In this document: positions 9,915 through 52,487 of the stretch, piece by piece
Layout of the letters: the number at the start of each line of letters is the position of its first letter
How positions within the stretch are numbered: the first letter of the stretch is position 1
IMG/VR virus record: IMGVR_UViG_3300025010_000053
Coordinates: 6,498-70,497 of that record
Origin: a virus
DNA: 64,000 nucleotides
Reading direction: 5' to 3' (one strand)
Translations under genes and position numbers: made by a program
Notes under the pieces: model-generated
The model's input: the letters and a program-made list of their open reading frames with translations, nothing else
Databases searched by the model: none
What the model was told of the DNA's origin: nothing

Positions 9915-9954
9915 TGATTATGGTGTTGACAGATTTCATAGATTAGTGTAAAAT
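9915..9954 (+). promoter_or_regulatory. Strong sigmaA promoter of the accessory operon, abutting a repeated operator
   Basis: TTGACA(9926)-17-TAAAAT(9949); TGATTATGGTGT at 9915-9926 also occurs at 9645-9656. Confidence 0.75.
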
Positions 9955-10183: not shown

Positions 10184-10477
10184 ATGGCAATGACCAAAAA
10201 TGAATTAATTGCAGAGGTCAAAGAAATTAGAGCATTATTCAGAAACGTAACGGAAAAAGAAATATTTGCAATACAGGCAGTACTAAGAGAAAAGGAACTA
10301 GATGGAAGGCACGAATACTGGCACAAAGCAAATAAGCTAAACATCATCTGGAACCACAGGACAGAATCAGGGATGAGAAAGATGACCAAAAAACAGTTAA
10401 GCGAATACATAGAGGAATTAATCGCCGATCTAGGCGAAGCAAACGACTTGATGAGAGAAGGATTGTCGATGTTGTAG
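10184..10477 (+). CDS. Hypothetical protein
   Basis: RBS gaggaggt; 97 aa. Confidence 0.65.
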   Translation: MAMTKNELIAEVKEIRALFRNVTEKEIFAIQAVLREKELDGRHEYWHKANKLNIIWNHRTESGMRKMTKKQLSEYIEELIADLGEANDLMREGLSML

Positions 10478-12214: not shown

Positions 12215-12946
12215 ATGAAATTAAGCGTAAACGACGCTGACGGAACTGCTGTTGTCGCAGTACTGAAGTTGAACGGACAACCTGCTGTAGAGAAAATCGA
12301 CTACATCAATTGGGAAGGACAATACCACAAGAACGGAAAGTGGAGCTATACCGAAGGTGGCGTTTCCCTGTGTGATGGCATTGTCTTAATTAAGCATATG
12401 TCTACTCACAGCAGTGCCAACAATCTGCGCTATGCCCACATTGTCGCGGATAATGTGGAGGAGGACAGCATATTTGTCATGGGCGTAGTCTCGGAGCAAG
12501 ACGAATACCCAAAAATGCCTGCCGGTTTTACTCTTGGATACCATGTCTGGGATGCTATCGTGGAAGGGTTTTTGAACATCCCGAATCCCACAGACAGATT
12601 TAAACAGAGCGTTGCCGATGCCCGAGCACGCTGGGAACTTGCAGAGCAATTCAATCCCACCAGGCCGATTACAGTAGAAGGTCCCGTATTTTGGAGTATT
12701 GGCGTAGATGGCCCCTGTACACCATCAGATCCGTTGCCAGTCATGCCGGAAATTCCCCGCGGATCCCTGTTGGTCATCGGTGGACGGGCACCTATTTGGA
12801 GGTATGGCTTAGCCCTACATCAAGCGCACGGATCCGCTGCCGGTGCTGCAGCCACCTTTGATCCAAAGATTGGGGCGGTGGTAGTAGCAACACACAACGC
12901 CAATTGGAAGGAGAGGCAGATTGTCGCTGTGGACTGGCCGTTTTAG
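12215..12946 (+). CDS. csx3: Csx3/Crn3 (CRISPR ring nuclease)-like domain fused to an unknown N-terminal domain
   Basis: C-terminal LLVIGGRAPIWRYGLALHQAH...ATFDPKIGAVVVATH matches the Csx3 signature GRxPxW...H..H...DP(R/K)xGAVVVxxH. Confidence 0.8.
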   Translation: MKLSVNDADGTAVVAVLKLNGQPAVEKIDYINWEGQYHKNGKWSYTEGGVSLCDGIVLIKHMSTHSSANNLRYAHIVADNVEEDSIFVMGVVSEQDEYPKMPAGFTLGYHVWDAIVEGFLNIPNPTDRFKQSVADARARWELAEQFNPTRPITVEGPVFWSIGVDGPCTPSDPLPVMPEIPRGSLLVIGGRAPIWRYGLALHQAHGSAAGAAATFDPKIGAVVVATHNANWKERQIVAVDWPF

Positions 12947-12977
12947 TCCGCAAGATTAAGCTAAGGAGGTGATACAT

Positions 12978-13163
12978 ATGATTAATCTAGATATTAAACC
13001 CACAGAAGAACAATTGGCAAAAGTTCCCGAAACCAAAAAAGCGCTGAATGCTCTTTATGTGGCAATTGAAGCTGAGTTTCCAGTTGGTAGAGAAAAGTCA
13101 CTTATTTTTACCAACCTGGATGTGGCAATATTATGGATTCGTGAGGCCATTATGAAACTTTAG
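12978..13163 (+). CDS. Acb2/Tad1-like helical-hairpin protein (putative nucleotide-signal sponge)
   Basis: FPVGREKSLIFTNLDVAILWIREAI resembles the P.xREKSLA.TxLE.A.MW motif of the Acb2/Tad1 hairpin family; RBS aaggaggtg. Confidence 0.6.
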   Translation: MINLDIKPTEEQLAKVPETKKALNALYVAIEAEFPVGREKSLIFTNLDVAILWIREAIMKL

Positions 13164-13229
13164 TCTACTATCTCTGCCCGTTTAGATACGGGCGGGGGTG
13201 GTGGGATTGAAAATAGGGGAGGGGTAATT

Positions 13230-14087
13230 ATGAATTTTGATGAATTATGTGTCAGGGTATTCGCTGGTTTTGAAGCCGGAGAAGTCCACTACTACATCAA
13301 CGAATGCTTCAGAGAAAGAGGATTTGGGAGAGATAGTGTTGAACAGATCCTCAAAAATTACGGTTTTGAGTTCAACTTGGATGATACAGATGTATATGAA
13401 AAAATTTGTGAAGTTTCAAAAGGATTGTTCGTTGAGTTGGCACCCTTTGAAGAGCTTCGCAAAAAGGTGTATGAAGGATATCGAACAGGTAAAGTACACC
13501 ACTATTTTACTAATTCTTTCGGTCATTATTACTCCAAAAAAACCGTCATAAGCCACTTAAACCGCTATGGCATTCCTGTCGATTTGGACGCTCAGGATGC
13601 TTACGAGCAGATTTTAAAACTGTCCATACCGTTGTTTTTGGAGTCAAAAGGGCTCCACTTAGGCAAGAATACTTTCAAGCTTGATGACGGAAAGTATCTC
13701 GTTAACGACGGCGGCAAGTACAGGCCCAATCTGTCTCTAATTTTCACTGAGGACAGGTTGTTAAAAGCATTTGATTATGCAGCCGATACCGAACTTCAAG
13801 GCAGTCTTAATGTCTCTTTTTCTGGCAACATGGGGTTTAAGTTTGGTCGTTTCTTTAAGAGCAAGAAAGGCACTAACTGCTTTGAGGAAATGGATCGCGA
13901 TAAAGCCCCGCATATGCTCATCAAAATAAATTGGGGCGGTGCTTTTGATAGTTCGCGTGGGTTTAGAAGTTGGCCCGAAGGAAGTCTATACCGTCGCGTT
14001 GCCAAATCAAATGGCGGCGGAGCTGGCAATGACTACCTTGTACTGCCGATTAATTTTAAGCAGACCTTAAGGTTTGGGGATATTTAA
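13230..14087 (+). CDS. Hypothetical protein
   Basis: 285 aa; RBS ggagggg. Confidence 0.7.
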   Translation: MNFDELCVRVFAGFEAGEVHYYINECFRERGFGRDSVEQILKNYGFEFNLDDTDVYEKICEVSKGLFVELAPFEELRKKVYEGYRTGKVHHYFTNSFGHYYSKKTVISHLNRYGIPVDLDAQDAYEQILKLSIPLFLESKGLHLGKNTFKLDDGKYLVNDGGKYRPNLSLIFTEDRLLKAFDYAADTELQGSLNVSFSGNMGFKFGRFFKSKKGTNCFEEMDRDKAPHMLIKINWGGAFDSSRGFRSWPEGSLYRRVAKSNGGGAGNDYLVLPINFKQTLRFGDI

Positions 14088-14114
14088 TCTTAGAGTTCGT
14101 TGGAGGTGTCAAGC

Positions 14115-15251
14115 ATGGCCCAATACAACGTTACCCGTGCTTGCGGGCATGAGGAAACAGTTAACCTTATTGGTAAGCACAAACTACGGGAGTGGCGACT
14201 GGAGAACGTCGAACCAAACAAGTTATGCCACACCTGTTACCATGCGGAACTTGAACGCCAGCGTGAAAAGGCCACCGCCGAAGCTATCGAGGCAGCGAAA
14301 GAAATGGAGTTGCCAGCACTCGATGGAACTGAAAAACAAGTGGCCTGGGCAGAGCGAATACGCCAGGAGATATTGCTCCGGGCAGAAGGATTCCTGCATG
14401 GAAATATCACCGATGAGCAACGCGCTGATCTAATGACCGGACTTGACCACCTACAACAGATCGAGTCAGCGAGTTGGTGGATTGACCGCCGTGATATGTC
14501 ATTGCGGATGCTTGAAACTCTACTGCTCAACACTGCCAAACAGCAGAAGGATAAGCCGCCACAGGTGCTTACCGACGCTGTTAAAATAGAGGCGACTGTC
14601 AGGCCTGAAAACACCGTCACCGAAACTGTAGCGGAAATCCGAGCACTTGAAAAAAGCATGGAAATATATTTTCCCGAGAAGCGCGACGACTTTCGGGAAA
14701 TTGTAAAGGAAAAATTGAGTATGGATTGGACCGGGCTGTGCTGGAGAAGAAAAATAGCGAAGCACAACGGCACTCCGGCAGATCGTGCATCTGAGGCAGG
14801 GCACAGACTGCTTGCTGCTGGGTTCCCTGTTAGAATCTTTGACGATGAGACACGGCAGAAGGCCATCGACGGCACATATGAGCCAGAGCATACCCGCTGG
14901 ATTATGTGCCGCACTACAGGCGGTTATGCTGGTCACCTAGTGGTACGGTGGAGCAAGAAAGAAGACTTCTACCGTGCTGCAAAGGGTATTAACGGTAGTC
15001 GATATGACAAACCCGATGTTGTGGTTCCCCCCGAGCATTTTGCCGAGGTACTGGACTTCGCACAAATGTATGACTTTAGGATCTCGTCAGGTGCGCAGAA
15101 GGCAATAGATTTAGCACGGCAGGCATGGGAGAGCATACTTACCGTAATTGTCGCGCCGCCAGCGGAAAAAGATTGCGTGGTTGCCATCGGCAAGCCTCCC
15201 GTCTTGGAGGTTCCTATTGATATGAATATTGCAGATGAATTTAGGGATTAG
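14115..15251 (+). CDS. Conserved hypothetical protein with N-terminal Cys/His motif (CGH...CxxC)
   Basis: RACGHEETV...LCHTC...LPALDGTEKQVAWAERIR; RBS ggaggtg. Confidence 0.75.
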   Translation: MAQYNVTRACGHEETVNLIGKHKLREWRLENVEPNKLCHTCYHAELERQREKATAEAIEAAKEMELPALDGTEKQVAWAERIRQEILLRAEGFLHGNITDEQRADLMTGLDHLQQIESASWWIDRRDMSLRMLETLLLNTAKQQKDKPPQVLTDAVKIEATVRPENTVTETVAEIRALEKSMEIYFPEKRDDFREIVKEKLSMDWTGLCWRRKIAKHNGTPADRASEAGHRLLAAGFPVRIFDDETRQKAIDGTYEPEHTRWIMCRTTGGYAGHLVVRWSKKEDFYRAAKGINGSRYDKPDVVVPPEHFAEVLDFAQMYDFRISSGAQKAIDLARQAWESILTVIVAPPAEKDCVVAIGKPPVLEVPIDMNIADEFRD

Positions 15252-44513: not shown

Positions 44514-45996
44514 ATTTATAGAGCCTCCTGCTTATTGTTAACTTGGTTTATTTATCTTTAGCTAATATTAGACGGTTTATACCTAACTGGAACAATATTT
44601 ATCTAGTTATTGGTATGTGAGGATGATGAATAAAATGCCTGAGCTAATAATTAGGGAAGAAGTTCGTTATTGGCGCTGGTTGTCTGCATCTTAACCAATA
44701 GAACGCCGGAAGAATCATTTCAACTTATAGCACCAGTGCGGAAGCCTAGGGGGAAGAATATCAGCCTAATGGACGATGTTATCGAGGAAATGGTGAGACT
44801 CAAGGAAACCATGTCATATGAAGCACTTGGAAAGCACTACGGAGTGTCGGTTAACACTGTTTACAGAAAGATTAAGAAATATCGGGAAAGGACGGTGGAA
44901 GCGGATGGAAGCACGGAAGGAAGTAAAAATAGATATACCTGCTGTTGAGGACTGGACTACTGCAGAACTTCGGAGGTGCTGCAAAAAAAGCAAGGTTAAG
45001 GGTTATTCAAAACTTAGCCGTGCCGAGTTGGTTGAAGCGGTTAAGGACAGTATTAAGCAGTTCAATAAGGATACCCATGATGAGCACAGGAAGACCGACG
45101 CCGCCAAGGAAAAGCTAAAAAAGGTTGTTAATGCGGTAAACAATATAATTATTGAAAACAACTGCACTATAGGCGCGGAGATTAAAAACGGTGAGATTAG
45201 AATAATTTTTACCGACCACGATTCGAATATGATTGCGCGACTGCCTGAAAAGCTGGAGTTGATAGTATGAGCGAAGAAAAACGCGTCTATCAATGTGAGT
45301 GTGAAATTTGCGGTGGTGCTGGAGAATTAAGCGGAGAATGTTCCGAGTGTGGAGTCAAGTCGTTAACTACCGATGAAGTAAATGCCTCTAGAGTTAGGAA
45401 TTTAACGGCTTTAGTGGCTTCCAAAAAACTAGTAATAGGTGCACTGAGAGTCAAAAATGGTTGGCTTAGTGCAGAAAATAAGAGTCTGCAGGCAGAGGTT
45501 GAGAGATTACGCAAACAACTTGAATTATGTACTGACATGCTGGTCAAGGAAGAGATTATTCCTTTCTAGGTCTGGAGGTTGAAAATTATGACAAAAAATC
45601 AACAAAAAGATGCTGATGAATGTAACCAAATGATGGATCAGGGAAGAACTAAGGAATGTTTTGGATGCAGTTGTAACGTGTGCTTACTTACGGTTAGTGA
45701 TAATGAGCAAAGGATCGAGGAAATGACTGCAGGCATCAAGGGTTATCACGAACAGGGTGCTGATGATCTAGGAACTATTAACCGATTACAGGCAGAGACT
45801 AAGAAGCTAAAAGACATCATCAAAGACCTCCTGGAACTGGGATTAACTCCTCACAAACAGAAAGATATTGATTATCACAAAGAGGCTAGATGTTCAGAAT
45901 GTGACGGGGAATGTACGCAGAGCAACGATTTATGCAGCATCCCCGATGAAATGCTTAAGTTCAACGAATTAATAAAAGTAGCCAGGGATGCCATAA

Positions 45997-51569: not shown

Positions 51570-52487
51570 ATGGCGCGGGCAAGAAATATTAAACCAGGAT
51601 TTTTCTTGAATGACGAATTAGCGGAAATAGAACCTCTTGGTCGCTTGCTATTTGCTGGCCTCTGGACTATTGCAGATAGGGAGGGACGCCTTGAGGATAG
51701 ACCCAAGAAAATCAAGGCGGCTGTACTTCCCTATGACGATTGCAACGTAGATAGTTTATTGCAGGAGCTAAATAATAAGGGATTCATTGTCCGGTATACG
51801 GTAAATGGCAATAGTTATATAGCTATTATTAACTGGAAAAAGCACCAAAACCCACATATAAAAGAAGCTGCAAGCGAGATACCTGCACCGGAAAAAATAG
51901 TTTCTTCCATTAAAGAGGTTAGGGATGAAACTATTTTAGAACATGAAAAGAACAGTACAAGTACAGTACTAGAACAGAATCAGAATACAACTAATCCTGC
52001 TGATTCCCTTAACCCTATTACTGATTCCCTTAACCCTATTACTGATTCCCTTAACCCTATTACTGATTCCCTTAACCCTATTACTGATTCCCTTAACGGT
52101 GATAAAAAACAAAAAGAGGGCAAAGGAAAAAGTCCACCAAAAAATAATTATGCCGAGTTCGTGAGAATGACCGAAGCTGAGCATCAAAAGTTAGTTGACG
52201 AATATGGAGAAGAAAAAACAAAATCCATGATTCAAATACTAGATAACTATAAAGGCTCGAAAGGTAAAACATACAAAGATGATTACCGGGCTATCTTGTC
52301 CTGGGTAGTCAAACGAATTGAGGAAGAGGAGAGGAATAAGCATGGAGGCTGTTACTATAACGACGGAAAGCGTAAAACAGAGATGGCAAAGACAGGCACA
52401 AGAAAGACAGCAGAAGATTACACAAGCGGGGAGTATGGAAAATTTTTTGAGATTGACTTACCCGATGACCATGGAAAAGTTTGCTGA
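51570..52487 (+). CDS. Phage replication initiator
   Basis: MARARNIKPGFF...LFAGLWTIADREGRL N-terminus; internal iterons; upstream of dnaC-like gene. Confidence 0.85.
   Translation: MARARNIKPGFFLNDELAEIEPLGRLLFAGLWTIADREGRLEDRPKKIKAAVLPYDDCNVDSLLQELNNKGFIVRYTVNGNSYIAIINWKKHQNPHIKEAASEIPAPEKIVSSIKEVRDETILEHEKNSTSTVLEQNQNTTNPADSLNPITDSLNPITDSLNPITDSLNPITDSLNGDKKQKEGKGKSPPKNNYAEFVRMTEAEHQKLVDEYGEEKTKSMIQILDNYKGSKGKTYKDDYRAILSWVVKRIEEEERNKHGGCYYNDGKRKTEMAKTGTRKTAEDYTSGEYGKFFEIDLPDDHGKVC
52000..52097 (+). repeat. Iteron array (4 x 21 bp CTGATTCCCTTAACCCTATTA + 14-bp partial), likely phage origin
   Basis: Perfect tandem repeat inside the initiator gene (TDSLNPI repeats). Confidence 0.85.

Follow-up and report, generated by a model that had tools for sequence, protein, structure and literature searches.

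The question at this locus is whether a very small gene, lying directly 3' of a phage ring-nuclease gene, encodes a sponge for host immune signals. We analyzed a window of 64 kb, part of a 70.5-kb IMG/VR virus record. An earlier note, made from the sequence of this window, had described the product as a minimal Acb2/Tad1-like helical hairpin that sequesters defense signals, and had joined it with its neighbor into a degrade-plus-sequester gene pair. The elements of the locus are as follows.

9926-9954, plus strand: near-consensus sigma-70-type promoter, TTGACA-17-TAAAAT (promoter scan)
12215-12946, plus strand: upstream gene, probably of the same operon, whose 243-aa product ends in a Csx3/Crn3 ring-nuclease domain (PF09620)
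12964-12972, plus strand: ribosome-binding site AAGGAGGTG (direct reading of the sequence)
12978-13163, plus strand: coding sequence of the 61-aa short Acb2-family (PF24729/DUF7681-type) hairpin protein (ORF, profile and fold evidence)
13174-13195, plus strand: GC-rich stem-loop CTGCCCG-tttagata-CGGGCGG, 3' of the stop codon and without a T tract (sequence)

The gene lies where it had been placed. Its 61 codons run from the ATG at 12978 through the TAG at 13161-13163, behind a strong AGGAGG site (12965-12970) that is spaced 7 nt from the start. A GTG at 12969 was considered as an alternative start and rejected, because it falls within the AGGAGG site and would thus overlap the Shine-Dalgarno sequence. 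The string quoted in the earlier note, GREKSLIFTNLDVAILWIREA, corresponds to residues 37-57. The protein forms only one cluster at 90% identity, and the identical protein is called on 18 contigs.

To place the protein in a family, we compared it with profiles, single sequences and alignments. The Pfam profile PF24729 (Acb2_Tad1_hairpin) matched residues 8-59 at profile positions 5-57 of 58 with an E-value of 3.4e-5 and 24.4 bits, just below the gathering cut-off of 27 bits, and PHROG 1454 matched with an E-value of 6e-6. We judged the cleanest homology test to be an hhalign comparison of the single query with an alignment of 55 family members from which the query was excluded, and this gave a clear match (97.7% probability, E-value 1.7e-12, 53 columns). 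An exhaustive phmmer search of 1.84 billion proteins or representatives returned one true relative, P0003 (54 aa, E-value 8e-4), which itself scores 54.2 bits on PF24729. The other phmmer match, the 518-aa metagenomic triple-repeat protein P0002 (E-value 2.8e-4), was rejected as a low-information chance similarity; its thrice-repeated segment KPTEKQLAGVPALKK resembles residues 7-21 of the 61-aa protein (KPTEEQLAKVPETKK, 12996-13040).

Searches of phage records with tblastn gave weak matches to small proteins from phages of Microbacterium, Paenibacillus, Mycobacterium and Gordonia. The two that we checked, Alex44 gp51 (59.5 bits) and Pahemo gp73 (95.7 bits), are both solid members of PF24729. 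When compared with solved structures, the family profile matched Acb2_43 (9PTQ) with an E-value of 1.3e-6, several Tad1 proteins at about 1e-3 and T4 Vs.4 at 0.1. An alignment-based search retrieved over 7,000 proteins, about 67 aa long and mainly from Bacillota, that are annotated as "DUF7681" or "Acb2/Tad1 hairpin". The single sequence retrieved far less: a word-index homolog search returned only the query itself, phmmer against PDB sequences gave no match, no NCBIfam model matched the protein or the short clade, and no close relative appeared when contigs of viruses, metagenomes and genomes were scanned. The lone genome-scan match, in a Paracoccaceae MAG, lies out of frame in a stretch shared with another ORF, and it was discarded as noise.

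At the level of sequence, homology to the Acb2/Tad1 hairpin superfamily is secure, and the 61-aa protein is a divergent member of the short Acb2 clade. Pfam, PHROG, phmmer and hhalign agree on the kinship that the earlier note had recognized, and the profile search that it had proposed as a check is positive, though below the cut-off. The shared helix to which it had pointed is also real, and reads R-E-x-S-x-x-x-T-x-L-E-x-A-x-M-W in the alignments and the family profile.

Two observations on the annotation of this family were made in passing. In UniRef and some other records, the PF24729 hairpin gene (67 aa) of phages of Paenibacillus larvae (Pahemo, MW927522.1, 40797-41000; Hayley, KT361655.1) bears the name "phosphomannomutase", apparently a wrong label for an Acb2-type gene that has been copied from entry to entry. 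Elsewhere in the window, 45741-45848 on the plus strand (52238-52345 of the record) gives a very weak PF24729 match (11.5 bits, E-value 0.027, profile positions 1-31) inside a 144-aa open frame; this is probably noise.

The predicted structure divides the protein into three segments.

12981-13001, plus strand: N-terminal strand, residues 2-8 (INLDIKP), the counterpart of beta1 in Acb2_43 and of F-x-Y-H-x-P in the short clade (sequence and gapless structural alignment)
13005-13076, plus strand: helix alpha1, residues 10-33, with a kink at 15-16 and K20/K21 aligned to K19 of Acb2_43 (AF2 and alignments)
13089-13154, plus strand: helix alpha2, residues 38-59, with the family signature REKSLIFTNLDVAILW (AF2 and alignments)

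The AF2 model, a monomer prediction from a shallow alignment of 56 sequences, is a two-helix hairpin with a mean pLDDT of 87.9. Helices span residues 10-14, 17-33 and 38-59, and residues 1-9 are extended; the two long antiparallel helices correspond to the helical hairpin described earlier. Among viral models, Foldseek ranked "Acb2/Tad1 hairpin domain-containing proteins" at positions 1-5 and 8 (probability 0.97-0.57, TM 0.65-0.69), and nothing in the PDB was significant in the same type of search. An exhaustive VIA-align search placed 9ptq_A at the top, with Z 6.4 and an rmsd of 3.0 over a gapless alignment of 59 of 61 residues (model residues 3-61 against chain residues 2-60), though only in a three-way tie with unrelated generic helical hairpins. 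The modeled fold agrees with the sequence evidence and would not alone establish the relationship.

The hairpin occurs in two kinds of sponge. In Tad1 an N-terminal four-stranded beta-sheet precedes the hairpin, and in Acb2 the hairpin is preceded by a short N-terminal element (PMC12043709). Tad1 chains are 123-138 aa long and carry the motif at residues 87-124, and only 9 residues precede the helices of the 61-aa protein. We rejected an assignment to Tad1, whose beta-sheet domain is absent here and cannot fit into 61 aa. For lack of that domain the protein is Acb2-like, with its hairpin and short N terminus, and not Tad1-like, so only the first half of the label "Acb2/Tad1-like" applies. Tad1 (PDB 7UAV, 8KBB) shares the C-terminal hairpin and its motif, sRE..cAlThvEEAlMW, but forms the gcADPR/CDN pocket with its own N-terminal beta-sheet, the domain missing here. 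The Tad1 hexamer has a site for cyclic trinucleotides as well, at the hairpin trimer interface (PMC12043709).

Small size is not new in the Acb2 family. Hadary et al. 2025 collected 4,204 non-redundant Acb2 homologs and tested 46, most of which inhibit CBASS, and their Table S2 lists homologs of 50-67 aa with activity against CBASS, type I Thoeris or both (bioRxiv 10.1101/2025.08.24.671296). For instance, Acb2 #28 (50 aa) inhibits cGAMP CBASS, Acb2 #8 (62 aa) inhibits cGAMP CBASS in a plaque assay, Acb2 #31 (62 aa) inhibits type I Thoeris and 3'3'-cUA CBASS, and Acb2 #4 (67 aa) inhibits the 3'3'-cGAMP CBASS of E. albertii (bioRxiv 10.1101/2025.08.24.671296). The minimal length stressed in the earlier note is therefore not new, since active homologs of 50-67 aa are known. 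The same study reports that Acb2_43 (75 aa, PDB 9PTQ) forms a hexamer, binds 3'cADPR via its N-terminal beta-strand and inhibits type I Thoeris, and that 19 of 84 tested sponge homologs, including the 60-aa Acb2 #22, are inactive against all seven systems (bioRxiv 10.1101/2025.08.24.671296).

Closest in build are the short Acb2 proteins of Bacillota phages (about 67 aa, such as Acb2 #4 and Pahemo gp73 of a Paenibacillus phage), which consist of an N-terminal strand and two long helices with no other domain. The Paenibacillus type is 34-38% identical to the 61-aa protein, and the signature G-R-E-K-S-L-x-x-T-x-L-[ED]-x-A-x-[ML]-W is common to both. These proteins differ in having F-x-Y-H where N-L-D-I stands here, in six more N-terminal residues and in their Pfam scores of 88-96 bits. 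Acb2_43 has the PxGREKS loop, the helix motif and K19 (K20 here) in common with the 61-aa protein, in addition to the structural match tied with generic hairpins, but it is only 24% identical and has its own C-terminal beta2 extension, missing here. Acb2 #31 is nearly equal in length and has an identical K-P-T-E-E-Q at positions 7-12; it differs in overall sequence (28% identity), in its strand, GFQYVKP, which retains F and Y, and in its loop, KSRGLS as against VGREKS here. The founding anti-CBASS sponges, PaMx33/JBD67 Acb2 and T4 Vs.4 (89-108 aa; PDB 8H2J, 7UQ2), contain the same Pfam hairpin domain, and JBD67 Acb2 scores 59.6 bits on PF24729. They differ in their longer helices and in an extra N-terminal helix with Y11, which stacks on cyclic dinucleotides, and the direct profile comparison was not significant (E-value 0.098).

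The residues of the two known kinds of ligand pocket fared very differently. In PaMx33 Acb2 (numbered according to the 8H2J sequence), R67 and T74 are essential for cA3 binding (PMC10312549). One is the Arg in the "G-R" loop, the other the Thr in "T-x-L/I", and they align to R38 (13089-13091) and T45 (13110-13112) with an identical spacing of 7 residues. Because these residues match and their register recurs in three independent alignments, the trinucleotide (cA3/cAAG) site at the hairpin trimer interface is the best-preserved candidate pocket.

The N-terminal strand, which in other members builds the dinucleotide/3'cADPR pocket (bioRxiv 10.1101/2025.08.24.671296), is changed. The near-invariant F-x-Y-H-x-P of the short clade reads N3-L4-D5-I6-K7-P8, with other residues in place of the aromatics and the His, and the Y11-type aromatic of PaMx33 Acb2 is also absent. 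The Acb2_43 contacts T4, H5, L6, V7, K19 and K55 correspond to D5, I6, K7, P8, K20 and E56, and thus one of six 3'cADPR contacts is retained (K19, as K20). Across all vertex-pocket residues that we compared (Y11/K26 of PaMx33 Acb2, F-x-Y-H and the Acb2_43 contacts), this lysine is the only one found here. Such residues set subgroup specificity and not family membership, and tested member #31 is also without the His.

Given N-L-D-I in place of F-x-Y-H, ligand specificity may differ from that of known members, and any such difference more likely stems from the N-terminal strand. The earlier note had also suggested a change of specificity, and this much stands, but it had sought the cause in helix substitutions (LDVAILWIR). 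These are normal family variation, as in the tested proteins Tad1 #46 (IDEAILW), Acb2 #22 (KLDEALFW) and #9 (KLDEVAMW); the departure lies in the strand.

We infer ligand binding and anti-defense activity from this picture, and we consider the 61-aa protein to be probably, although by no means assuredly, a phage immune-signal sponge. Our confidence is discounted because 19 of 84 tested homologs were inactive and because the pocket strand is remodeled. The protomer would consist of the N-terminal strand and the two long antiparallel helices, and by analogy with PaMx33 Acb2 and Acb2_43 it would assemble into a homohexamer. Such an assembly would fit the strongly hydrophobic character of helix alpha2 (13 of 22 residues), which exceeds what one would expect a two-helix hairpin to bury by itself. 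Made early alongside the products of the neighboring anti-defense genes, the hexamer would sequester nucleotide second messengers of host defense without degrading them, and the effectors would consequently never be switched on. Cyclic trinucleotides (cA3/cAAG) would be held in the pocket on the three-fold axis via R38 and T45, and they are our most defensible guess for the ligand. The three vertex pockets would be remodeled relative to members that bind cyclic dinucleotides or 3'cADPR.

The same facts could also describe a true member of the hairpin family that is not a sponge, or that binds no known signal, and instead serves, for instance, as an oligomeric scaffold or protein-binding module or in another role early in infection. 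In its favor are the inactive homologs, with the 60-aa Acb2 #22 among them, and the loss of the near-invariant F-x-Y-H pocket strand. The hairpin domain is also found fused to unrelated domains, and such fusions were left out by Hadary et al. Against it, most tested Acb2 homologs are active, very short ones included, R38, T45 and the entire signature helix are kept, and the gene adjoins another signal-directed counter-defense gene. We regard such a hairpin without known sponge activity as possible, but clearly less likely than the sponge.

The upstream protein matches Pfam PF09620 (Cas_csx3) with 52.3 bits against a cut-off of 21, and TIGR02579 with 45.4 bits, under the cut-off of 55.4. Its stop codon lies 31 nt before the 61-aa ORF, which bears out the earlier placement of the sponge gene directly 3' of a ring-nuclease gene. 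The co-oriented operon that holds both probably begins at the promoter at 9926-9954. Because all ORFs with ribosome-binding sites between 9991 and 15251 share the plus strand downstream of this promoter, the 61-aa gene probably belongs to one early operon. The host is likely a member of the Bacillota, since the SNF2 helicase of the virus has its best phage match in a Clostridium phage (35% identity).

The remainder of the operon yielded several further observations. Directly downstream, 13230-14087 (plus strand) encodes a 285-aa protein that matches no Pfam or PHROG family. It contains an internal duplication of about 70 residues (approximately 5-75 and 77-147, resembling ...GxVHxYxxxxF...NxYGxxxxLDxxDxYExIxxxSxxLFxE) followed by a Gly-rich C-terminal half, and is a candidate anti-defense gene of the operon. 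The next gene, 14100-15251 (plus strand), encodes a 383-aa protein of no Pfam family whose N-terminal 173 residues match PHROG 16123 (unknown function) with an E-value of 1e-25. The stem-loop at 13174-13195 is absent from the listing of the terminator scan and is probably an intercistronic stabilizer or processing hairpin, not a terminator. Similar GC-rich stem-loops without a T tract occur between operon genes at 10477, 10885, 11608 and 12150; they could be mRNA-stabilizing or processing elements rather than terminators.

Adjacency to Csx3 raises the further possibility that the hairpin protein is a dedicated partner of the Csx3 fusion against type III CRISPR, in which the sponge takes up cA3 (or, unusually, cA4 or cA6) while Csx3 cleaves cA4, or in which the hairpin binds and modulates the nuclease. 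In favor of such a partnership, a gap of 31 nt separates the two genes within one operon and the residues of the cA3 site are kept; type III CRISPR systems also signal with cA3 (PMC10312549). Because PaMx33 Acb2 binds neither cA4 nor cA6 (PMC10312549), a sponge of this type would not duplicate the Csx3 substrate, although it could complement the nuclease via cA3; the same property argues against the uptake of cA4 or cA6. If the two genes formed a module, they would be expected to recur together. Within 4 kb on either side of 80 IMG/VR hairpin loci, tblastn found relatives of neither the Csx3 fusion nor any of nine other operon proteins (0 of 80). The viral contig scan for Csx3-fusion relatives gave one weak partial match, at a contig end with no DNA beyond it, and a literature search found no paper that joins Acb2 and Csx3 as a module. 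Anti-defense genes also often cluster without a joint function. The adjacency is thus known from this phage only, with no sign of a conserved module: in the degrade-plus-sequester pair proposed earlier, the 31-nt proximity is real and the recurrence is not seen. We consider a dedicated partnership unlikely. Slightly less likely still is its more specific form, in which the N-L-D-I strand confers a new ligand (such as a type III CRISPR cOA) and the two proteins have co-evolved, the sponge taking cA3 and the nuclease cA4.

The last alternative, a chance ORF or mis-call with a fortuitous motif, could appeal to the short length, the single sequence cluster and the Pfam score under threshold, but the strong and correctly spaced ribosome-binding site, the independent profile matches (Pfam, PHROG, hhalign), the confident predicted fold and the exact protein called on 18 contigs make it extremely improbable.

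Taken alone, a phage immune-signal sponge of this kind does not change the known picture, as short Acb2 sponges have already been catalogued (the 4,204 non-redundant homologs), solved and tested. The sole unusual point of a fairly ordinary gene is its adjacency to a phage Csx3 ring nuclease, and the early operon that holds the two is a good place to look for further anti-defense genes. If a sponge for CRISPR cOA signals were indeed paired with Csx3, it would be the first sponge of the Acb2 family with CRISPR signaling as its dedicated target. If the protein is active, it would extend the Acb2 family by a very divergent branch, and it would help to tell the residues on which assembly and the trinucleotide site depend (R38 and T45 together with the signature helix, all kept) from those that tune the vertex pockets, which are changed here.
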